Shown: one piece after another, positions 7,001 through 58,643 of the stretch
Position numbering within the stretch: position 1 is the stretch's first letter
How the letters are laid out: each line of letters opens with the position of its first letter
Source: an uncultured Gammaproteobacteria bacterium
GTDB taxonomy: Bacteria; Patescibacteriota; Microgenomatia; Woykebacterales; RBG-16-39-9b
Assembly: GCA_964367355.1 (NCBI GenBank)
Contig: CAYIWY010000004.1
Location: 35,976-99,975 of the forward strand
DNA length: 64,000 nucleotides
Direction: 5' to 3'
Translations under genes and position numbers: made by a program
The notes under the pieces: model-generated
Told to the model about the DNA's origin: nothing
The model's input: the letters and a program-made list of their open reading frames with translations, nothing else
The model's database searches: none

Positions 7001-8497
7001 TTACGCCTTAAATGATTTTTTGAAATCAACTGTAAATTTCTCTAACTCTTTTGTAATTTTCTCGGTTAAAACTTTCTCGTCCTTAATTTGTTTGAGTAGA
7101 TTTTTGCCTTTGGTGATTAAACTATCCAGGTATTTCTCCTGGAAAGAGCTGAGATTTTCAATTGCGATATCGTCTAGAAAACCATTAGTAACGGCCCAAA
7201 TTAAAACCACTTGCTGCTCGACTGGGATTGGGTTGTATTGGGGTTGTTTGAGAATTTCGACAATTCTACGACCGCGGTCAAGTTGGTTTTTTGTCGCTTC
7301 GTCTAGGTCTGAACCAAACTGGGCGAAAGCTTCGAGGCTGCGGAACTGTGCCAAATCAAGCCGCAGAGTTCCGGCAACAGATTTCATTGCCTTGATTTGG
7401 GCTGATCCTCCAACCCTGGAAACCGAGAGACCAACGTTGACAGCCGGGCGATTGCCTGCGTTAAACATATCCGATTCCAAGTAAATTTGTCCGTCGGTGA
7501 TAGAGATTACATTGGTTGGGATATAAGCTGAGACATCTCCGGCTTGAGTTTCGATAATTGGAAGAGCTGTCAAAGAACCGCCGCCATTATCCTTACTTAA
7601 ACGAGCTGCGCGTTCGAGTAGGCGAGAGTGGAGGTAAAAAATATCACCTGGGTAAGCTTCTCGACCAGAAGGTCGACGCAAAAGCAGGGAAATTTGACGG
7701 TAAGCCCAAGCGTGTTTTGAGAGATCGTCATAAATTGCTAAAGCATCTCTGCCTTGTTCCATAAAATACTCACCGATAGCACAGCCTGCATAGGGCGCTA
7801 GAAATTGCAATGATGCTGAATCCGAGGCTGAAGCTGCAACAACGATTGTATGATTCATTGCCCCATATTTTTCTAGAGTGTCGATGATTTGGGCAATTTT
7901 TGAAGTTTTTTGTCCGATAGCTACATAGATACAAATTACGCCGGAATCTTTTTGGTTAATGATTGTGTCAATGGTGATAGCTGTTTTACCAGTCCCCCGA
8001 TCACCAATGATCAACTCTCGTTGTCCACGCCCAATTGGAATCATACTATCAATTGCTTTAATACCGGTCTGTAGTGGGGTATTAACCGATTGTCTAGTAA
8101 TTACACCCGGAGCAATTTTCTCAATCGGATTGTCTTTGGTAGCTTTAAGTGGACCTTTTCCATCAATTGGGTTACCAAGCGGATCGACGACTCGACCGAT
8201 TAAACTTTCCCCAACTGGTATTGATAGAATTTTCCCGGTTGTTTCAACTTGATCACCTTCCTTTAGAATTTTGTAATCACCAAAAACAACAATACCAACT
8301 TGATCTTCTTCTAAGTTAAGTGCTAAACCAAAAAGTTCATAGGGAAGTTTGACTAGTTCGTTATAAGCAACTTCAGATAGACCTTCAACTTTGATAACTC
8401 CGTCCCCAATTTCAATTATTTTACCGACATTCTTTTTTGTCGTTGTTGTTTTTAATGATTCAATTTCCTTTTTAATTGTTTCTGCTAGTTTACTCAT
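7001..8497 (-). CDS. atpA: F1F0 ATP synthase subunit alpha
   Basis: Walker [11 protein letters not shown]; 498 aa. Confidence 0.95.
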
Positions 8498-8877: not shown

Positions 8878-10353
<1,476 letters not shown>

Positions 10354-12972: not shown

Positions 12973-13095
12973 ATTTACCTCCTGTGACTTCACGACCGGT
13001 TCTGAAATTGTACAAATTTTAACACAATAAAGAAGAAAAGTCAATACTATAAGCCGCTTCGCGTCTTGCGTCCAGAAAATGCTGGACTAAGGTTA

Positions 13096-38546: not shown

Positions 38547-38860
38547 TAGGAAAAAGACCACGAAGTGCAAAGTGCCAAACAAGTTGTTTGTGCAAATGTT
38601 ATTCGTGGTCTCTTAGGTTGAACTTTCTAACGCTACTTTCCTTTTCTACGTCAGCCAATCTCCCTTTTAGTAAGCTTTAAACCTACAAGATTGTCTGACG
38701 TAGAAACAGTTCATCCGTTTCGTCTAAAGTCTACGTAAGACCACTTGTTAAAGCTCACTGTCCCTTTCAGGACACTAGTAGCGTTTGTGACGCAGGTGCT
38801 TTATAGCACAAAAAAGGCCGATAGTCAATTGTTTAGCTAGATGATATAATGAATTAATAC

Positions 38861-38983: not shown

Positions 38984-40123
38984 TTAGATTGTAAATCGAT
39001 CCTCAAGTGTATTAGCACCGGGCATGGAAAGTACTTCCGCATTTGCTGCTTTTACTCTCGGGTCGTCCAAATCTGGGGTGACACCGATGAAAAATTGGGC
39101 AACACCGGATGGGAGTATTGTCTGGGCCATTGTGGTCGTTTTGTCGACCTCGTGTTTGTCGAAACAACCAAGAACCTGAGCCAGTAATCCAACGATGTTT
39201 TCCGGCTCTGAAAATTCAAAACCAACCGCACCGCCGTTTAAGTCCCCGAGAACCCGGACAAGCCAGTCACTGATTGCAAGAACTTTATCCAAGGTTTCCT
39301 TTTCGATCATCTCCCGGGAACGCTTCATCTCCGCTGCAATTTGAGCAGTGTTTCCGTTCTTTATCATTTGCGATAAATCAGCAAAAACATCTGCTAAAGT
39401 ATCTACCAATTTGGGTCCGTCAGGATGGCTGGTAATGATTTCCGATACCACGTCCTGCTGACCTAGACTGCGGATTGCTCCAAAAGCTTGAAGTTTGGCA
39501 GGTGCGCCAGCAACCTTAAGCATCTGAGTTACATCGATGTTGGATCTTTGCCAGACCATACCGACTGCGACTGCCAATATCATTGGCAAGAGTTGTGACC
39601 CTTTAGTGAGAGCGTCGTGTTCCGCAATCGTTCTTTCGGCCAATTTTGCCTTTTTGGCCTCAAGCAGGTTAACCATCCAGGTTTTCCACCTAGGATTTAG
39701 CAATTCCTGTGGGAAACCAAAGACGATTGATTGTCCGTGTAATGACCGCACATTTGGCGCGATCATAAAATGGACAAAACCGGTGTCCACCCTAAACACT
39801 TTTAAGGTTTGCCACTCTAGTACGTTCCCGATTGGGAAATCGCGCACCTGCTGGATTGAGCTTCCATGCAACCATAAAGTATTGGGACAGGCATGGACGA
39901 CTAAACGTCGCATCGTGGGGGCAACATCTGCTAGCGGTAGGATCGAAAAAATGACAACGTCGGATTTGGCAATAACTTCTGCATTGCTCAAACCATCCGG
40001 GTCACTAATGTCTGATCCAATTACTTCAAGACCTGCTTCTCTGAACAGGGGCTCGTAAATGTTTCGAGCCATCTTTCCTTGATTACCGATGATTCCAACA
40101 ACTTTGGCAGGAAACATCCCCAA
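38984..40123 (-). CDS. prephenate/arogenate dehydrogenase-like NAD(P)-binding oxidoreductase
   Basis: N-terminal Rossmann GIIGNQGKMA and a TyrA-like C-terminal domain. Noticeably higher GC than its neighbours. Confidence 0.5.
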   Translation of the reverse strand: MGMFPAKVVGIIGNQGKMARNIYEPLFREAGLEVIGSDISDPDGLSNAEVIAKSDVVIFSILPLADVAPTMRRLVVHACPNTLWLHGSSIQQVRDFPIGNVLEWQTLKVFRVDTGFVHFMIAPNVRSLHGQSIVFGFPQELLNPRWKTWMVNLLEAKKAKLAERTIAEHDALTKGSQLLPMILAVAVGMVWQRSNIDVTQMLKVAGAPAKLQAFGAIRSLGQQDVVSEIITSHPDGPKLVDTLADVFADLSQMIKNGNTAQIAAEMKRSREMIEKETLDKVLAISDWLVRVLGDLNGGAVGFEFSEPENIVGLLAQVLGCFDKHEVDKTTTMAQTILPSGVAQFFIGVTPDLDDPRVKAANAEVLSMPGANTLEDRFTI

Positions 40124-40293: not shown

Positions 40294-40356
40294 CCGCCCG
40301 CCAAGCAAGGCTAGCTTGCTAGGCGTTGCGGGCGGGCACGAAGCCCACCCACCAAG

Positions 40357-45395: not shown

Positions 45396-45437
45396 ATATC
45401 TTTTTCAAAATCTTTAGAAATTGAATAATATCGTAAC

Positions 45438-45464
45438 TTAGCAACACTGTCAAGTGACTGCTAA
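45438..45464. promoter_or_regulatory. CIRCE-like inverted repeat TTAGCAACA-N9-GACTGCTAA upstream of lon
   Basis: 27-nt element resembling the HrcA operator TTAGCACTC-N9-GAGTGCTAA. The right arm matches 8/9, the left arm 6/9. Confidence 0.3.
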
Positions 45465-45591
45465 GAATTTTACCAACTAAAACCCATAGTATTGACTTCC
45501 TGGTCAATTTCAGCTATACTCTCGCAATAAGCAGGCCAAAATAGTCTACTGTTAGCCTAGTACAAAACCAGTAAAGAAAGGGAGAAACTAA

Positions 45592-46107
45592 ATGAAAGGT
45601 GTATTAGCTTTTGTGGCCGTCGTTCTGCTAGCATTCTCGATCGGTCTTACCGTTGGGTGTGTTGCCCAGAACATTTCGGTAAACAACGATGTTAACGCTT
45701 GGCTCACGCGAGCTCAAGTGGCAGCGGACATCGAGGATATGATGATCTACCTGGATCGGGCTGAGCAAGGTCTGGACGACCGAAACATGAATTCTGGTCA
45801 CTCAGGAGTGGTCATCAAAAACGCGGCCAACGACTTCACTTTGATCCGACAGAACATCGATCGGATCCAGGAGCGAGCCGGTCAGCTTTCTAAGACTCCA
45901 GTCGAGCAACGAGGTGGTGACGCCGCCTACCAACAAGGGCTTGACGATCTCCGTGGTACTCTCCGCGAATTGAGTGTACCCGCAGAAGGCTATTACTGGC
46001 GTCACGACGGACTTCTCTACCTAATCAGTGTTTGGTTCGTGTGGGCACTGCTCGTGGTGGTGGCCATTATCGCGGGCTACGTCATATTTTTTAGAGACAG
46101 CTACTGA
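45592..46107 (+). CDS. membrane-anchored hypothetical protein (N- and C-terminal TM)
   Basis: 171 aa, higher GC, driven by the shared AAACCCATAGTATTGACTT promoter. Confidence 0.5.
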   Translation: MKGVLAFVAVVLLAFSIGLTVGCVAQNISVNNDVNAWLTRAQVAADIEDMMIYLDRAEQGLDDRNMNSGHSGVVIKNAANDFTLIRQNIDRIQERAGQLSKTPVEQRGGDAAYQQGLDDLRGTLRELSVPAEGYYWRHDGLLYLISVWFVWALLVVVAIIAGYVIFFRDSY

Positions 46108-46261
46108 CGAAGCCGTTCGCTACTAACAGAGAGGAACTCCTTTGGGGTTGTGGTGAGTGAAAGTAACCACCTGTAAAGCAATTTACAGCCATTTTCCCCT
46201 AAGCAAATCTCTCAAGAGGTTTCCTTAGGACAAGTAACTCCGAATTAATTCGGAGTTTTTT

Positions 46262-46370
46262 GTTGGCTGAAATGGATAATCTGAGGCTAAAAAGCTATGG
46301 GGGGACAACGAGATTGAGATAGAACCCTTACTAGACAGTATGATCCTACTATTTAATCAACTAAGAGGTA
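46262..46370. repeat. tRNA-His-derived repeat, copy L (contains a degenerate tRNA-His 3' end ATGGGGGGACAACGAGATTGAGATAGAACCC)
   Basis: Aligns to 47038-47133 and 47985-48035 and to the authentic tRNA-His 3' end TGGGGGGGAGTATGGGACTTGAACCC. Confidence 0.6.
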
Positions 46371-46476
46371 CAAACTTAGTTCTGTAAGGTTAGTTTTTGT
46401 TGGTAGAAAGTTTCAAAATACTCGACCAGAGCAAAGCCACCCTTCAGCAAGCTTTTGATTATGCTACAATTTCCTT

Positions 46477-46710
46477 GTGATTAAATTTACTGAGCACGTA
46501 GAAACTAGACTTGAAGAAAGAAATATTACTAAGGAACAAATTGGTGAAGCCATCGGAAGTCCAGACGTTGTTTTACCAGCAAGGGCAAATCGTTCGATTG
46601 CAATTAAGAAGTTTGAAAATAATTTTCTCAAAGTAGTGTTTATTAAAGATCAAGGTGATATAATCGTGATCACTACTCACTGGATTAGTAAATTGAAACT
46701 TAAGGAGTAA
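46477..46710 (+). CDS. DUF4258 family toxin-like protein
   Basis: FTEHVETRLEERNITKEQIGEAIGSPD...IAIKKF...VVF pattern; paired with a DUF2283 gene. Confidence 0.6.
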   Translation: MIKFTEHVETRLEERNITKEQIGEAIGSPDVVLPARANRSIAIKKFENNFLKVVFIKDQGDIIVITTHWISKLKLKE

Positions 46711-46712
46711 AT

Positions 46713-46940
46713 ATGAACGTTCGTTACGACCCAAAAGCTGATGCAGCTTACATTTATTTAACTGAAAATAAAGGTAGTTCCTCTAATAGTAAAACTAAAG
46801 TGGCTGAGACCAAGGAACTTTCGGATGAAATTTTTGTGGACTACGACAGCGAAGGCCGCCCACTTGGCATTGAAATAATTGGTGTTAAAGATAGAGTACC
46901 CTCTAAAACCCTTCATTTTTTTGAAACCCAAACACGCTAG
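46713..46940 (+). CDS. DUF2283 family protein (antitoxin-like partner)
   Basis: MNVRYDPKADAAYIYL...FVDYDSEGRPLGIEII, the DUF2283 signature. Confidence 0.65.
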   Translation: MNVRYDPKADAAYIYLTENKGSSSNSKTKVAETKELSDEIFVDYDSEGRPLGIEIIGVKDRVPSKTLHFFETQTR

Positions 46941-47133
46941 TTTTTTTAGGCCACGAAGTGGTCGCAGAATGCTTTAGCGATCATTAGATTTCTTAATCGC
47001 AGAGAGCAAAGCGAACTATTGGTTAAAATTGGTTATTATGAGGCTAAAAATCTATAGTGGGACAACGCTCTTGAGATAGAACCCTTACTAAACAGTATAG
47101 TCTTACTATTTAATCAATTAAGATATTCAAACG
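46936..47133. repeat. tRNA-locus-derived repeat, copy M (CCACGAAGTGGTCGCAG ... TTGGTTAAAATTGG ... ATAGTGGGACAACGCTCTTGAGATAGAACCC ...)
   Basis: Its 5' part matches 47896-47990. Its 3' part matches copy L, including the degenerate tRNA-His 3' end. Confidence 0.6.
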
Positions 47134-47166
47134 TAATTCTTTAAAGTTTGGTATAATTGTTTCAAC

Positions 47167-47463
47167 ATGAAAACTGAAACTATCGATATAGACCAAATTA
47201 AAGAAAAGGTTTTGCCAATACTCAAAGAGGTAGGTGTCACTCGCAGTTCTATCTTTGGTTCTTTTGCTGCAGGTGAAAACACTAAGGACAGTGATATCGA
47301 TATTCTGATTGAGCCGCCTGAAAGTATGACGTTATTTGGTTTTGCTGGTCTAAAGTTGGAGTTGGAAGAAGCACTCGGTCGGGAAGTTGATTTGGTAGAG
47401 TATTCTGCTATTAAACCTCGTATTAAACAGCAATTACTAAGTACTCAAATTCCCATTCTATGA
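47167..47463 (+). CDS. nucleotidyltransferase (MNT/MntA-type antitoxin)
   Basis: GSFAAGENTKDSDIDILIE: a minimal nucleotidyltransferase fold with the GS...DxD motif. Confidence 0.85.
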   Translation: MKTETIDIDQIKEKVLPILKEVGVTRSSIFGSFAAGENTKDSDIDILIEPPESMTLFGFAGLKLELEEALGREVDLVEYSAIKPRIKQQLLSTQIPIL

Positions 47464-47813
47464 AAGAAGAAAAAAGAGACATGGGTCTTTATCTGGAAGA
47501 TGTTTTTGAAAGTATTAAGCAGATACAAGAATATACTGATGGTATTGAAGAGGATGAGTTTTATACTAATCAGTTAATCCAAGACGCAGTGGCGAGAAGA
47601 TTTGCAATTATTGGCGAGGGAGTTAAACACGTTCCTGAGTATTATCGAGAAAAACACCCGGAAACTAATTGGAAAAGTATTGCTGGTATGCGTGACATTC
47701 TTGTCCACGAATATTTTGAAGTCAATCTCAAAAGAATTTGGAATACAATTCAAGAAGAACTATCCACTTTTAAAGAGCAGATTAAGAACTTACCCGAAAT
47801 GTCTAATAGTTAA
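47460..47813 (+). CDS. HEPN-domain toxin (HepT/DUF86)
   Basis: Rx4HxY motif in MRDILVHEY. Overlaps the MNT gene by 4 nt. Confidence 0.85.
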   Translation: MKEEKRDMGLYLEDVFESIKQIQEYTDGIEEDEFYTNQLIQDAVARRFAIIGEGVKHVPEYYREKHPETNWKSIAGMRDILVHEYFEVNLKRIWNTIQEELSTFKEQIKNLPEMSNS

Positions 47814-47895
47814 GCAACTACTTAAAAACCTCCCACACTTAAGTAAATCTTGAATAAAGGTTTTCTTAGGACAAGTAACTAGCTGAAAGGCTAGT

Positions 47896-48035
47896 TTTTT
47901 TAGTCCACGAAGTGGTCGCAGAACGCTTTATCGATCATTAGATTTCTTAACCGCAGAGAGCAAAGCGAACTATTGGCTAAAATGGTTAAATCTGAGGCTA
48001 AAAAACGATGGGGGGAGCTTGGTATCAAAAAGGGT
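47896..48035. repeat. tRNA-locus-derived repeat, copy R, abutting tRNA-His
   Basis: CCACGAAGTGGTCGCAGAACGCTTTATCGATCATTAGATTTCTTAACCGCAGAGAGCAAAGCGAACTATTGGCTAAAATGG... reads directly into the tRNA-His 3' end. Confidence 0.6.
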
Positions 48036-48036
48036 A

Positions 48037-48113
48037 CTGGGGGGGAGTATGGGACTTGAACCCATGACATGTAGTTCCACAAACTACCGCTCTACCAACT
48101 GAGCTAACTCCCC
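48037..48113 (-). tRNA. tRNA-His (anticodon GTG) with encoded G-1 and CCA
   Basis: Reverse complement folds as GGGGAGT/ACTCCCC acceptor, anticodon loop TTGTGGA, an extra 5' G pairing with discriminator C. Confidence 0.85.
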
Positions 48114-48119
48114 CACGAA

Positions 48120-48196
48120 GTGGCGCGCCTGAAGGGACTCGAACCCCCAACACCCAGTTCCGAAGACTGGTGCTCTATCCAATTGAGCTACAGGCG
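48120..48196 (-). tRNA. tRNA-Arg (anticodon TCG)
   Basis: Reverse complement GCGCCTGTAGCTCAATTGGATAGAGCACCAGTCTTCGGAACTGG...TTCGAGTCCC...CAGGCGCGCCA. Confidence 0.85.
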
Positions 48197-48331
48197 CTTG
48201 CAGTAGGTGTATTTTAACAAATTTAACCTAAAATTGATAGTTCTGTGGTGGTTTTGAAGCGGGCGCGTAAATTATGTGAAACTAATCTTAGCTCATTTTG
48301 ATAGGTTGATAAAATTGCACGAAGCGTTAAT

Positions 48332-48604
48332 CTATTTGTACAACTGGCTATGTGTTCCTAAAGCTTCGAAAGTAATAATTATTGTACCTAATTTATCTGT
48401 GCTTTCACTATAAAGAGCTCTCCAGTCACCAGTAATATTAATACTTCGGTAGTCTTTTAATTTTCCTTTTAACAAATGGTTATTGAGCAGGGGATCAAGA
48501 GGGTTCTGTAGGAAAAGTTTTATTCTTTCTTGAAAAGCTAATTTTATCTTTGGTTCCGTCCTGACGTATAGCTTAGAAAACTTTCTGCTGAATTTAATTT
48601 TCAT
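48332..48604 (-). CDS. RelE/ParE family toxin
   Basis: LKGKLKDYRSINITGDWRALY, the RelE/ParE fold signature. Confidence 0.7.
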   Translation of the reverse strand: MKIKFSRKFSKLYVRTEPKIKLAFQERIKLFLQNPLDPLLNNHLLKGKLKDYRSINITGDWRALYSESTDKLGTIIITFEALGTHSQLYK

Positions 48605-48887
48605 TACTTGTTGATCTATTTAACCAAGTAATGGCGTCGTCAGCATTATCGAATTGAGGGGATACCTTCCCCTTCTCGATGTCTTCTTTTGATTCTTTGA
48701 GAACTGTTAGGAGATACTCAGTTGGAAGCTCATCAGAAACACTGAAACTAACGCTCTTAGTTTTGATAAGTTGCTTTAAATAGGCATTAATCAAAGAACT
48801 AAGACTAAAACCTAACTCATCAGCCACTTCCTTGGCTTTTGTTTTGGTTTCTGGATTGGTTTTAATATTAATTACACTAGAATTCAT
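48594..48887 (-). CDS. RelB/DinJ-type antitoxin
   Basis: INIKTNPETKTKAKEVADELGFSLSSLINAYLKQLI. Overlaps the toxin gene by 11 nt. Confidence 0.65.
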   Translation of the reverse strand: MNSSVINIKTNPETKTKAKEVADELGFSLSSLINAYLKQLIKTKSVSFSVSDELPTEYLLTVLKESKEDIEKGKVSPQFDNADDAITWLNRSTSNEN

Positions 48888-49029
48888 ATAGATAAAGTAT
48901 ACATATTGTATACACTTTTGTCAATAAATTAAATTGTAGAAGACTTTTATAAAGAGGATAATCTGCTAATATTTGGAGCGGGTGAGGGGAAGAATAACCA
49001 TTTGCTATGCAAAAGTTGAGCCCTCGAAA

Positions 49030-56254: not shown

Positions 56255-56405
56255 AGTTTTATTGTGTAGATTTTTTATTAAAAGCTACTAATACCTCCTT
56301 TCATTTTTGATTATACTCTATTTGCTACTAATTAGCTAATTGAGACTAATTGGCACTGTTATTTTGCAGACAACACACCCAATTTTTCGTACCTCGGAAA
56401 TAGCA

Positions 56406-56535
56406 GGATTCTCACGTAGGTTCGAGTCAACTCCAGAAACTAAAAAAGAAACTTGAGATGGACCCAACTGACTTCTTCTGGCTGCCAGACTAAGTCGCTT
56501 CGCGCCTTGCGACCACTTCGTGGGCTAAGGATTCG
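56406..56535. repeat. 130-nt direct repeat copy 1, containing a copy of the tRNA-Gln 3' end TGGCTGCCAGACTA
   Basis: Segments X (GGATTCTCACGTAGGTTCGA...), T (TGGCTGCCAGACTA) and Y (AGTCGCTTCGCGCCTTGCGACCACTTCGTGGGCTAA) align to 58446-58583. Confidence 0.85.
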
Positions 56536-56750
56536 AAAATCTAATCTTGTCTATGACAAACCAGAAAGTATGTTCGAAGTTTCAAACACACTTTCTGGCT
56601 GGCGAAGTTGCCCGCAGGTGGAACCTCATTGAACCTAGTCTCCACAATACCTACGAAAAACTAATGAATCTGGGTTTTATCTTCCACAACGGACAAGTCA
56701 CTAAAATACTACAAGAAAAAAGAGAATAAAAATGATTTAAAAATAACTCC

Positions 56751-58397
56751 TTGAAATTCTTTCTTTTAGTTGTAATAATATTACAAATGCCTGAAAGTTC
56801 ACCCATTTCTACACCTGTAGTAGAAAATTTTAACACATCCTTATCACAAACAGTTAAAACTCCAACGAAACCACGAAAGCCGATCCTTATTATATTGGTC
56901 TTAATATTATTATTTGTGGGTGCGGCAGTTTTTGCATTCATTTGGAATCAGAGGGGAGATCAGTTAAGAGTGCTTGATAATGGAAACTCGTCTCTTCTAA
57001 AAGACCGAGTGTTTGTACGCTACGAGGAAAATGGTGCGTACGAGAAAGACTCTAGTACAGGTGAGGTTAAAAAAATAACAGATGCTAAAGGTAATGTTAA
57101 CAGCATTCGCAAAAAGACGTTTGAAATAACTTTGGAAAAAAATGGCACAAAGCATCCCGTAATCCTAGACGATAAAACTATAGAGTTTGGTGCAACTACG
57201 GACAATAAACTTTATTCGATATCATGCAGTGTTGCGGAAGATGGAATGGTAGGTGCAGATAACGCTAGTTTTACAGTCCAGTTCTATGACCAAGATGGCA
57301 ATAAAACTAAACAAGCAAATTGGAAAGAACAGGATACAACGAGACCTGCTGATTTAGGAAATGACTGCCAGAGCAACTATTTTAGTATTCGCTCAAATCG
57401 GGTTGATTTTGCTGCACGTAACTACGGGCGTGAATTAGTTGATGATCTTAACTACAAGCTTGTCTTTGTTAAGAATGATGGTTCAAAACAAGATGTGGAT
57501 ATTGAGACTACGGCAGACATCAATATTCCATTGGGTCCAACCCCAGATAAAAAATTATTTCTCTACAATCGAATTAGTGCGAAAAGATTGCCCGATGGCT
57601 GTGGTGGTCCGATAACTGAGTTACCGTACAAGGTAGTAGACTTTTCAGGTCCAATTAACGAGCTGCATGCTGTCGATCTCTTGGCTAAAAAAGACACTCT
57701 CATCGGAACAGAGAAATCCTTTTCCGCGACAGATCATCAGATTAATTTAAGCCACAGAGGTGATTTTTCAAAAGATAGCGCTAGGTATTACCTAGTTGAT
57801 GTAGGATCTGTCGGCCACGGTGGCTGTTCTGATGGTAATATTGTACCAATACGTATACCTTATATTGATCTTAAAACTAACAAATTAGAAACAATTTCTT
57901 CACCTGATGGGAAAGAGTACTCCAACTATTGTTTCAATGAAAATGTAAATTACATTTTAGAATCTGGGGTTGTAGATGACTATGACGATGCAACTCCAGC
58001 CAAAACTCCAGCAGCACCTACAGTTTTAAATATCATGAATAGCACTGTTTACCAAGATAACAATCTTACTGATGGATTTGGCTGTGAAAGTTGGCTGCCA
58101 AACACTTTTATGAAGTTAGATACAACTGCCGACGAAACAGAAGAAGAACACACTTATTCCCTTCTTGGTTTCAGCACCTTCGATCCAGCTACTAAAGCTA
58201 TTCAGAAAACTACCTTGAAAACGCCTGTATTGTACAAGTCGGTGTTATTCCTTAAGGGTAGTTTTATCTCTAGTATTCAAAAAACTGGTGCTGCTAATGT
58301 TGGCTATATTAATAGAGATAGGGTGGAAAAGACTGTCCTATTCAACGCCAAAACCGGAGAAATCCAGGAAGTAGATTACGCGCAACTTGTGTTGTGA
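56751..58397 (+). CDS. large secreted/membrane-anchored hypothetical protein (Cys/Asp-rich, beta-rich)
   Basis: 548-aa ORF with an N-terminal TM (PILIILVLILLFVGAAVFAFIW). The start is ambiguous between TTG 56751 and ATG 56787. Confidence 0.6.
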   Translation: MKFFLLVVIILQMPESSPISTPVVENFNTSLSQTVKTPTKPRKPILIILVLILLFVGAAVFAFIWNQRGDQLRVLDNGNSSLLKDRVFVRYEENGAYEKDSSTGEVKKITDAKGNVNSIRKKTFEITLEKNGTKHPVILDDKTIEFGATTDNKLYSISCSVAEDGMVGADNASFTVQFYDQDGNKTKQANWKEQDTTRPADLGNDCQSNYFSIRSNRVDFAARNYGRELVDDLNYKLVFVKNDGSKQDVDIETTADINIPLGPTPDKKLFLYNRISAKRLPDGCGGPITELPYKVVDFSGPINELHAVDLLAKKDTLIGTEKSFSATDHQINLSHRGDFSKDSARYYLVDVGSVGHGGCSDGNIVPIRIPYIDLKTNKLETISSPDGKEYSNYCFNENVNYILESGVVDDYDDATPAKTPAAPTVLNIMNSTVYQDNNLTDGFGCESWLPNTFMKLDTTADETEEEHTYSLLGFSTFDPATKAIQKTTLKTPVLYKSVLFLKGSFISSIQKTGAANVGYINRDRVEKTVLFNAKTGEIQEVDYAQLVL

Positions 58398-58445
58398 TCC
58401 TGTTATTAAAACTCCTAAATTGTTCCGAAAAACCCCACTATTTTT

Positions 58446-58583
58446 TGGCTGCCAGACTAAGTCGCTTCGCGCCTTGCGACCACTTCGTGGGCTAAGGATT
58501 CTCACGTAGGTTCGAATCAGCTCTAGAAACTAGAAAAAGACACTTGAGATAAACTCAATTGCCTTTTTCTGGCTGCCAGACTA
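58446..58583. repeat. 130-nt direct repeat copy 2 (T-Y-X-T order), running into tRNA-Gln
   Basis: See copy 1. The final T segment is the genuine 3' end of tRNA-Gln. Confidence 0.85.
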
Positions 58584-58643
58584 GGATTCGAACCTAGATA
58601 ACGGGATCCAAATTCCCGTGTCCTACCATTAGACGATCTGGCA
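58570..58643 (-). tRNA. tRNA-Gln (anticodon TTG), U1-A72
   Basis: Reverse complement TGCCAGATCGTCTAATGGTAGGACACGGGAATTTGGATCCCGTTATCTAGGTTCGAATCCTAGTCTGGCAGCCA. Confidence 0.85.

Follow-up and report, generated by a model that had tools for sequence, protein, structure and literature searches.

A patescibacterial tRNA-His gene with a tandem array of small, integrase-less cassettes at its extreme 3' end, probably accreted by site-specific recombination

In the genome of an ultra-small bacterium (Patescibacteria), small gene cassettes, two of which carry predicted toxin-antitoxin (TA) pairs, are stacked one behind the other downstream of a tRNA-His gene. The locus lies in a 64-kb stretch of DNA (hereafter the window), to which coordinates refer unless a relative is named. 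The array occupies 2.57 kb (45465-48037), from tRNA-His to the lon operator, and has tRNA-Arg, tRNA-Gly, band 7, YidC and Lon as neighbours. Its anchor, on the side of the bacterial attachment site (attB), is an intact tRNA-His (GTG) gene (48038-48113, minus strand; 70.5 bits), the 3' end of which reads ...ACTCCCCCCCA; tRNA-Arg (TCG; 48121-48197, minus strand) lies 7 nt upstream. Outward from the tRNA, the order of elements is a 20-nt stub (h), core c3, the MNT/HepT cassette, core c2, the DUF4258/DUF2283 cassette, core c1, the cassette of a gene designated geneX, core c4 and the lon operator. The tRNA genes were called with ARAGORN and Rfam, protein families were assigned by Pfam gathering scores and RNA families were sought in Rfam 15; the loci of relatives and the metagenome contigs compared with the window are referred to by L-numbers (e.g. 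L007 or L227).

The first TA cassette (TA1) holds a DUF4258 gene (46477-46710; 1.2e-7, 32.3 bits with a cut-off of 25) and, 2 nt further on, a DUF2283 gene (46713-46940; 1.2e-15, 57.8 bits, cut-off 23), both on the plus strand; in the second (TA2), also on the plus strand, the gene of an MNT nucleotidyltransferase (NTP_transf_2; 47167-47463; 2.4e-14, 53.9 bits, cut-off 21) overlaps by 4 nt that of a HepT RNase (47460-47813; 9.7e-29, 100 bits, cut-off 23.5). The genes are co-directional within each pair and, by family membership, both pairs are predicted type II TA modules. The cargo of the distal cassette, geneX (45592-46107, plus strand), codes for a predicted membrane protein of 171 aa, for which a family match was sought and none found; in L007, L008, L232 and L233 the stretch from tRNA-His to lon is without this gene. 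The base composition of the array is atypical, with a GC content of 52% in geneX and 36% in the TA cassettes, compared with 40% in the window.

The 3' part of the geneX cassette (46120-46262, plus strand) is an RNA-like structured region of about 140 nt, with several hairpins (those designated 'a' and the R0a hairpin, CCTAAG...CTTAGG), which ends in the R0 hairpin, an intrinsic terminator (t1, from a terminator scan) and TTTTTTGTTGG. Homologues are found in L133, L138, L201, L227 and L235, and further genomes, as well as the ends of other cassettes, also have the R0/terminator part. Compensatory changes, judged by eye, distinguish the region of the window from that of L133, and the homologous region of L227 shows them likewise; a search of the a/R0 region against Rfam 15 gave no family match. 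The 3' end of this region (46195-46262; repeat D6) is duplicated in part at 47838-47903 (plus strand), as hairpin R0b and terminator t3, and the same module is found after the core in L235 and L227.

The two TA pairs are separated and flanked by three repeats: positions 46936-47062 match 47890-48016 at 89%, and positions 46270-46402 match 47027-47159 at 80% (repeat D2). Given these two pairwise matches, the middle copy is a composite of a left part, a core and a right part, the left copy consists of core plus right part and the right copy of left part plus core. The part common to all three is about 45 nt long (46263-46305, 47019-47062 and 47973-48017) and corresponds to cores c1, c2 and c3, which are all on the minus strand and each contain a short block, O. 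In c1 (46263-46305) this block reads TGGGGGGA on the plus strand (46298-46305), in c3 (47973-48017) it is TGGGGGGAG (48009-48017) and in c2 (47019-47062) it is degenerate (TAGTGGGA, 47055-47062). Next to c1 lies arm d1 (46306-46402), upstream of the DUF4258 operon, with the tRNA-sense end ...GGGTTCTATCTCAATCTCGTTG and a TTGAGA-19 nt-TATGAT motif; it aligns with arm d2 (47063-47159), which lies upstream of the MNT/HepT operon, with d3 of L214 and with the d arms of L227 and L235. Next to c3 stands the stub h (48018-48037, minus strand; GTACCCTTTTTGATACCAAG in tRNA sense), at a position where L214 and L227 have full cassettes, and, because its CAAG end matches their d arms, we interpret it as what is left of a tRNA-proximal cassette that was deleted. 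At the far end of the inserted DNA, the degenerate core c4 (45465-45489, minus strand; CTA followed by TGGGTTTTAGTTGGTAAAATTC in tRNA sense) adjoins the conserved lon operator TTAGCAGTC.

A preliminary description of this DNA had recognized the two TA-like pairs and the three repeats around them, and both stand, all four open reading frames (ORFs) scoring above the Pfam gathering scores and the repeats being real. Its array of two cassettes holds for the TA cassettes and is too small as a whole, the geneX cassette, the 20-nt stub of a fourth and the degenerate distal core having been overlooked. As a separate observation on the distal flank, the lon promoter is overlapped by a conserved inverted repeat, TTAGCAGTC-N9-TGCTAA (45425-45465, minus strand; 9930-9965 in L007 and 9960-9990 in L008), which we take to resemble a CIRCE-like heat-shock operator.

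Nine junctions aligned in tRNA sense all share one architecture, in which a d arm, block O and a c arm follow each other (d-O-c). The d arm has the consensus end ..GGTTC(T/G)A(T/G)CTCAAG.. and the shared motif GGTTCnAnCTCAAG. Block O, (C)TCCCCCCA, of 8-9 nt, is identical to the acceptor end of tRNA-His with CCA; it is found at c1 and c3, in degenerate form at c2 and c4, and at all junctions of L227, L214 and L235. The c arm, of about 35 nt, reads TrGnTTTTTAGCCTCAnAnTnAyCCATTTyAGCCAA and leads either straight into the terminator and R0 hairpin, both in reverse complement, or initially into a pair of hairpin elements (hp' and hp).

Within the window, the likeness between the repeats and tRNA-His is limited to TCCCCCCA and GGGTTC, and the finding that two of the three occurrences of TGGGGGGA in 64 kb fall within the repeats is suggestive, no more. 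The identity of the block is decided by two relatives. In L227, a related strain (86-92% DNA identity), the end of tRNA-His, CTCCCCCCCA (...ACTCCCCCCCA), is continuous with a core, TAGGTTTTTAGCTTCAAATATA (TAGGTTTTTAGCTTCA), and further cores at 8458 and 9380 bound a 3.4-kb block and the MNT/HepT cassette. L235 belongs to another species, with a band-7 protein that is 79% identical, and has a single cassette: tRNA-His (...CTTCCCCCCA) runs into TATATTTTTAGCCTCAGATTTATCCATTTTAACTAAC (arm c) and then into the reverse-complemented terminator and R0; on the distal side, the gene of a 300-aa protein, Trp-rich, with long hydrophobic stretches and membrane-like by eye, is followed by ...GGGGTTCGAGCTCAAGGTCGAGACCCCACCA and then by TTTACTTA and the lon operator. 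It follows that (C)TCCCCCCA is the real acceptor end of tRNA-His and that arm c is brought in by the element, being missing from the distal L235 junction. The preliminary description had taken the repeats for degenerate copies of the tRNA-His 3' end. Their likeness to that end is borne out in L227 and L235, where the core is joined to the true tRNA end, and falls short within the window, where alignment gives the p values reported below; the repeats themselves did not decay from a long tRNA 3' half and are instead a conserved attachment site (att) borne by the element and composed of the d arm with GGTTCnAnCTCAAG, the 8-9-nt acceptor end and the 35-nt c arm.

Empty sites, which the preliminary description had proposed to look for, occur in L007, L008, L232 and L233, where tRNA-His stands 66-78 nt from lon with nothing between; the operator upstream of lon is kept in L007 and L008. 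Furthermore, strains that are 86-100% identical differ in their cassettes, with breakpoints that all fall at cores. L227 lacks DUF4258/DUF2283 and carries, between tRNA-His and MNT/HepT, the 3.4-kb block, with eight genes including that of a HicA toxin. L214 matches the window over 1047 nt at 100% identity and L215 over 903 nt at 99.9%, both being from well H41 in the Hainich aquifer; after HepT and R0 they have a terminator, a core, a new d arm, an AdoCbl-II (B12) riboswitch (1329-1401 in L214; 41.9 bits, above the gathering score) and, downstream of it, a DUF4430 gene. The surroundings of the MNT/HepT cassette are different in L214/L215 and in L227. L217, from well H51 of the same aquifer, has the arrangement of the window. 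Relatives are, therefore, not uniform in content at this site, L214, L215, L227 and L235 all differing from the window.

Small foreign cassettes have probably accreted in tandem through site-specific recombination, with the very 3' end of tRNA-His as the target. Cassettes would enter one by one at this end, new ones on the tRNA-proximal side, each bearing the same att of d arm, O and c arm, usually followed by the terminator and R0. The O block, (C)TCCCCCCA, would be the likely crossover region, as suggested by the points at which the sequences diverge, and integration would keep the tRNA intact while depositing a copy of the core at each junction. The proposal of successive integrations into the tRNA 3' end, with att remnants left behind, was already part of the preliminary description and is supported by the empty sites, the variation among strains and the contiguity of core and tRNA. 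Some integrases are said (the distinction being ascribed to Williams in 2002) to target the extreme 3' end of tRNA genes, at the acceptor/CCA, and others the anticodon or T loop. The block shared here, made up of the final 8-9 nt of the tRNA with CCA included, resembles the sites of the former, from which the locus differs in that the conserved att runs about 35 nt past the tRNA on the element side.

Tandem accretion at tRNA genes is known to leave cis-mobilizable elements (CIMEs) devoid of an integrase (PMC5704250). The array resembles CIME accretion in the insertion at the 3' end of an intact tRNA gene, the att at each junction, the tandem arrangement of elements, their gene-proximal entry and the presence of left and right attachment sites (attL/attR) without an integrase (PMC5704250); repeats of a tRNA segment at the ends, an empty site and variable occupancy, as looked for in a CIME array, were found as well. 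Unlike in CIME accretion, all six cassettes (from five genomes) are without integrase or transfer genes and only 0.75-3.4 kb long, they share one att/terminator module, their cargo has its own regulatory parts and the host belongs to the Patescibacteria. The cassettes thus look more like a dedicated cassette system than like the outcome of repeated decay of large integrative and conjugative elements or integrative and mobilizable elements.

Several observations weigh against accretion by site-specific recombination. The array of the window is separated from tRNA-His by the 20-nt stub. When the repeats are locally aligned with the 3' end of tRNA-His, comparison with shuffled sequences gives p = 0.05-0.38 per copy, and other tRNAs score just as highly; the d motif conserved among junctions (CTTGAGnTnGAACC on the cargo strand) might just as well be the -35 region of a promoter. 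No closed d-O-c junction, as in a circle or in the attachment site of the free element (attP), was found among L001-L006 and L214-L231. In L214, one junction is made of R0b, a t1-type terminator and a c1-type core where the window has t3, hp and c3, which a crossover at the core alone could not make, and a contribution of homologous exchange in the shared R0/terminator modules is therefore implied as well. Finally, an integrase within the array, as would be looked for in a CIME array, was not found in searches of the window and cassettes, in agreement with the preliminary description, which had seen none; a Pfam/NCBIfam scan revealed no recombinase domain in those ORFs of the window and of the cassettes that were scanned, and no recombinase was found in the six cassettes of five genomes together with the 64-kb window.

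Part of this evidence would suit a scheme with no site-specific recombinase at all, in which the repeats are shared regulatory modules, namely a promoter region, a terminator and the R0 hairpin, and only homologous recombination between these modules and the conserved flanks (the tRNA genes and lon) adds, removes and shuffles cassettes, e.g. after DNA uptake. Indeed, the L214 junction requires that R0 or the terminator, and not the core, be the place of exchange, the absence of TA1 from L227 is the expected product of recombination between c1-d1 and c2-d2, the d arm contains a -35-like hexamer (TTGAGA/C) and no integrase was found in window or cassettes. We nevertheless regard this scheme as unlikely. 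It leaves open why each junction begins with the acceptor end of its own neighbouring tRNA, how the core came to be fused exactly to the CCA end of the tRNA in L227 and L235, why insertions at tRNA-Gln and tRNA-Gly (see below) are flanked by copies of the 3' ends of these tRNAs, and why the same arms accompany unrelated cargo in different species; a purely homologous mechanism falls short because the tRNA-specific ends are left unexplained.

The search for a recombinase covered the 64 kb of this genome, the cassettes and 2.3 Mb of fetched loci. With tblastn, tyrosine and serine recombinases and Y1 transposases (XerD, lambda Int, Hin, a Patescibacteria Xer and Y1 transposases, all of them approximate as queries) matched nothing in the window; the only matches outside it were genes resembling Xer, one set in L143 and L167, which showed no obvious connection with hp. 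In the 3.4-kb block of L227, a 68-aa ORF gave only weak matches to zinc-finger/ribbon families (E of at least 0.026). Two further proteins, of 253 aa in L227 and the 300-aa protein of L235, were considered as integrases and family scans gave no support. Since the cassettes encode no recombinase, accretion by site-specific recombination would imply an enzyme that acts in trans or was lost. An enzyme acting in trans would be more economical than six independent decays, because all cassettes are small and integrase-less and carry one att/terminator module across species. The predicted TA pairs plausibly stabilize the array.

Integron cassette arrays include those of chromosomal integrons, for which TA cassettes are typical, and clusters of attC sites lacking an integron-integrase (CALINs). 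The locus resembles them in its small, integrase-less cassettes of one orientation with one site each, in the fixed insertion site, the TA cargo and the turnover at strain level; it differs in that no IntI, attC hairpin or attI was found in it, in its tRNA-His anchor and in the upstream regions, terminators and even a riboswitch that the cassettes have of their own. That the array is itself a CALIN, with the 100-225-nt repeats as attC sites, is suggested by the small, uniformly oriented cassettes with similar repeats between them and by the TA cargo, of a kind typical of chromosomal integrons, and is nonetheless very improbable. The 225-nt unit (46940-47166) has no attC-like fold, with DNA folding z scores of -0.52 on the plus and -0.60 on the minus strand, and R''/R' core sites (RYYYAAC / GTTRRRY) were not seen on reading the sequence. 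Furthermore, the cassettes have upstream regions and terminators of their own, the anchor is a tRNA 3' end instead of an attI beside intI, and no IntI is found among the neighbours. The integron reading fails, in particular, because the unit is unfolded and IntI is missing.

The hairpin element hp is a second repeat family within the array. The preliminary description had taken the upstream parts of the repeats for copies of the tRNA-His/tRNA-Arg junction; instead, the sequence concerned, CCACGAAGTGGTCGCA, is the 19-nt constant module of hp, a dispersed element, and is also found at 56505-56523 and 58472-58490. An hp copy consists of the constant module, TAG-Y-CCACGAAGTGG-TCGC, and a 7-bp stem that varies between copies, and exists in a short form of 36-37 nt with a 3-4-nt loop and a long form of 65-83 nt, in which internal loops are conserved. 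By a covariance model, the window has five full copies (46947-46986 and 47901-47940 on the plus strand; 56491-56527, 58458-58494 and 13050-13089 on the minus strand) and a partial one (9610-9629, minus strand). On the c2 side, hp (E = 2.3e-10) is accompanied by hp', which is without the constant module (46997-47017, plus strand; a marginal E of 7.9), and on the c3 side hp (E = 1.6e-10) is accompanied by hp' at about 47951-47971 (plus strand). In the His array, hp and hp' are inserted between TTTTTT and GTTGG, i.e. between the terminator and arm c, and uninterrupted junctions are seen at c1 of the window, in L214, at the L227 core at 9380 and in L235. By comparison of these sequences, hp in the His array is to be seen as a secondary insertion.

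Were hp instead a real site of recombination or transposition, DNA between direct copies would move as a unit, as with attC sites or the hairpin ends of single-strand transposons. Direct copies do flank MNT/HepT (46947 and 47901) and a 548-aa gene described below (56491 and 58458), the folding of hp is strand-specific, with variable sequence and conserved structure, and hp is enriched near tRNA genes and sits in copies of tRNA 3' ends in several genomes. A role of this kind is improbable, since a core without hp is found at c1, at the c junction of L214, at c0 and the core at 9380 of L227 and in L235; it is on account of these hp-less junctions that an hp-driven mechanism falls short. In addition, insertion into TTTTTT/GTTGG explains hp and hp' cleanly, some 80% of the hp copies stand singly between genes with no relation to cassettes, and the 2.3 Mb of fetched DNA yielded no Y1 transposase with the approximate query.

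The element is common beyond this genome. A metagenome scan for TAGNCCACGAAGTGGTCGCA retrieved at least 120 contigs (L094-L213), several with more than one copy, where some five would be expected by chance on our rough estimate. Pairing extends to 93% of cells in 23 long copies, with compensatory changes in 12 pairs; not one of 500 shuffles attains even one of the five measures used, and slid controls show 28-45% pairing. With 42 G-T pairs against 5 A-C pairs, a ratio somewhat inflated because copies were selected with G-T counted as paired, one particular strand would therefore fold. Copies lie mostly outside ORFs of at least 90 aa (81 of 92), with no bias in orientation relative to neighbouring genes, and often supply or overlap a TAG stop codon. 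The flanks are TTYB/TAG...CT/AT, the commonest left tetramer being TTCG, and five tRNA genes or tRNA 3' fragments have hp at one exact position, directly preceded by TTCG (or TCCG) and directly followed by the three final bases of the T loop (AAT, TAT or AGT). Copies within 100 nt of tRNA genes are about 3.5-fold enriched (16 of 114, with 4.6 expected); short copies occur nested within the loops of long ones (L099 and L111), and tandem copies are seen.

Searches of the repeats and long hp variants against Rfam returned only tRNA, rRNA and intron hits and noise, and a full-text literature search for the hp sequence only unrelated papers. Among viral contigs, seven matches to the constant module were all due to chance, in unrelated contexts. 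By-eye comparison with consensus sequences gave no fit to a hammerhead, a hairpin ribozyme, group II domain 5 or a bulge-helix-bulge (BHB) intron. Neither is hp an intron of coding genes in L170 and L112, where the copies sit in degenerate duplicates of a gene 5' end beside the intact gene. In L170 (3560-3730), MKILITGGAGF, hp and IGSYLM with a stop codon succeed one another 19 nt upstream of an intact epimerase (MRILVTGGAGFIGSHV); in L112 (about 2250-2350), hp likewise lies in a degenerate 5'-end duplicate just upstream of an intact protein gene, and the layout of both is the same as that of the tRNA 3'-end duplicates.

Short, dispersed intergenic hairpins are otherwise represented by REP elements and REPINs, IS200/IS605-derived palindromes and Correia-type miniature inverted-repeat transposable elements. 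In common with these, hp has a 5' head that is conserved (NTAG), folds in a strand-specific manner, occurs in nested as well as tandem copies and frequently overlaps stop codons. Unlike REP and IS200-type elements, hp has a 19-nt module identical across many genomes, a stem that covaries even within a contig, long variants with conserved internal loops and insertion at TTCG/AAT in tRNA T loops, with no linked transposase and no entry in Rfam. Literature searches on Patescibacteria repeats and islands turned up group I introns in tRNA anticodon loops (PMC13011429), which are unrelated to hp. The tRNA-Arg/tRNA-His junction itself (48113-48123; CCA-CTTCGT-GG on the tRNA strand) shares an 11-nt identity with the constant hairpin of hp; five of the bases are fixed by the tRNAs, the model gives an E value of 0.18 and the spacers of relatives differ, so that the identity could be due to chance, a remnant of hp or the origin of the hp family. 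Overall, hp is a widespread, strongly structured repeat without a described family, and in these genomes it is likely to give rise to assembly breaks and to 'tRNA fragments' that are mis-read as such.

Other tRNA genes show comparable arrangements. At tRNA-Gln (58570-58643; locus 56400-58643), 15/16-nt copies of its 3' end, each split by hp, flank a gene for 548 aa (56751-58397), the family of which is unassigned. A 74-nt sequence following the tRNA is repeated as well (B1 and B2), the order being tRNA, B1, split copy, 548-aa gene, split copy and B2; L098 lacks the gene and retains a 58-nt stub. The composite of ..TCGAACCTnnGTGAGAATCC, hp and an acceptor end with CCA is found after tRNA-Asn in L133, together with tRNA-Gln (CTG) in L114 and also in L138 and L201, in which the tRNA was not identified. 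In the interval between tRNA-Gly and tRNA-Arg (48198-49029), RelB/YafQ genes (48332-48887, minus strand) are flanked by two short look-alikes (48974-48984 and 48255-48265), CACCCGCTCCA and CGCCCGCTTCA, of the tRNA-Gly end CCGCCGCTCCA; in L232 the same interval holds a dihydroorotate dehydrogenase gene and in L235 a gene for 165 aa, whereas L233, L007 and L008 have no gene there.

An ORF of 379 aa (38984-40123, minus strand; 47% GC) lies between tRNA-Arg (TCT) and tRNA-Lys, which are only about 75-310 nt apart in L008, L233 and L235, and may be another tRNA-linked insertion. Considered as an integrase, it gave no Pfam hit and has a Rossmann-like N-terminus that is not recombinase-like. Two hairpins of this region look like hp and are not matched by the model, namely a long one with GACCACGAAGTG...TTCGTGGTC upstream of tRNA-Arg (TCT) (38555-38612) and a GC-rich one, followed by GGGCACGAAGCCC, that adjoins tRNA-Lys (40294-40350).

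A wider picture can be offered tentatively, in which Woykebacteria-like Patescibacteria would possess an integron-like platform with the tRNA-His 3' end as its fixed site, where one unlinked host recombinase captures, stacks and loses integrase-less cassettes provided with a conserved att (a d arm mimicking the T arm, the acceptor end and the c arm) and with the R0/terminator module. The tRNA-Gln and tRNA-Gly loci would perhaps work likewise, and hp would be a second, undescribed element, mobile or protein-binding, with a T-loop-like target and possibly part of att sites of the tRNA-Gln type.

Patescibacteria have tiny, streamlined genomes, and how they acquire genes is little known. The locus is a compact, actively changing site of gene capture, where strains with 100% identical flanks differ in cassettes and the cargo spans TA modules, membrane proteins and a gene preceded by a B12 riboswitch. 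The d-O-c att provides a direct handle for the enzyme hunt and for surveys of cassettes in metagenomes and, if one trans-acting enzyme does serve all cassettes, the array would be a tRNA-anchored analogue of the integron.

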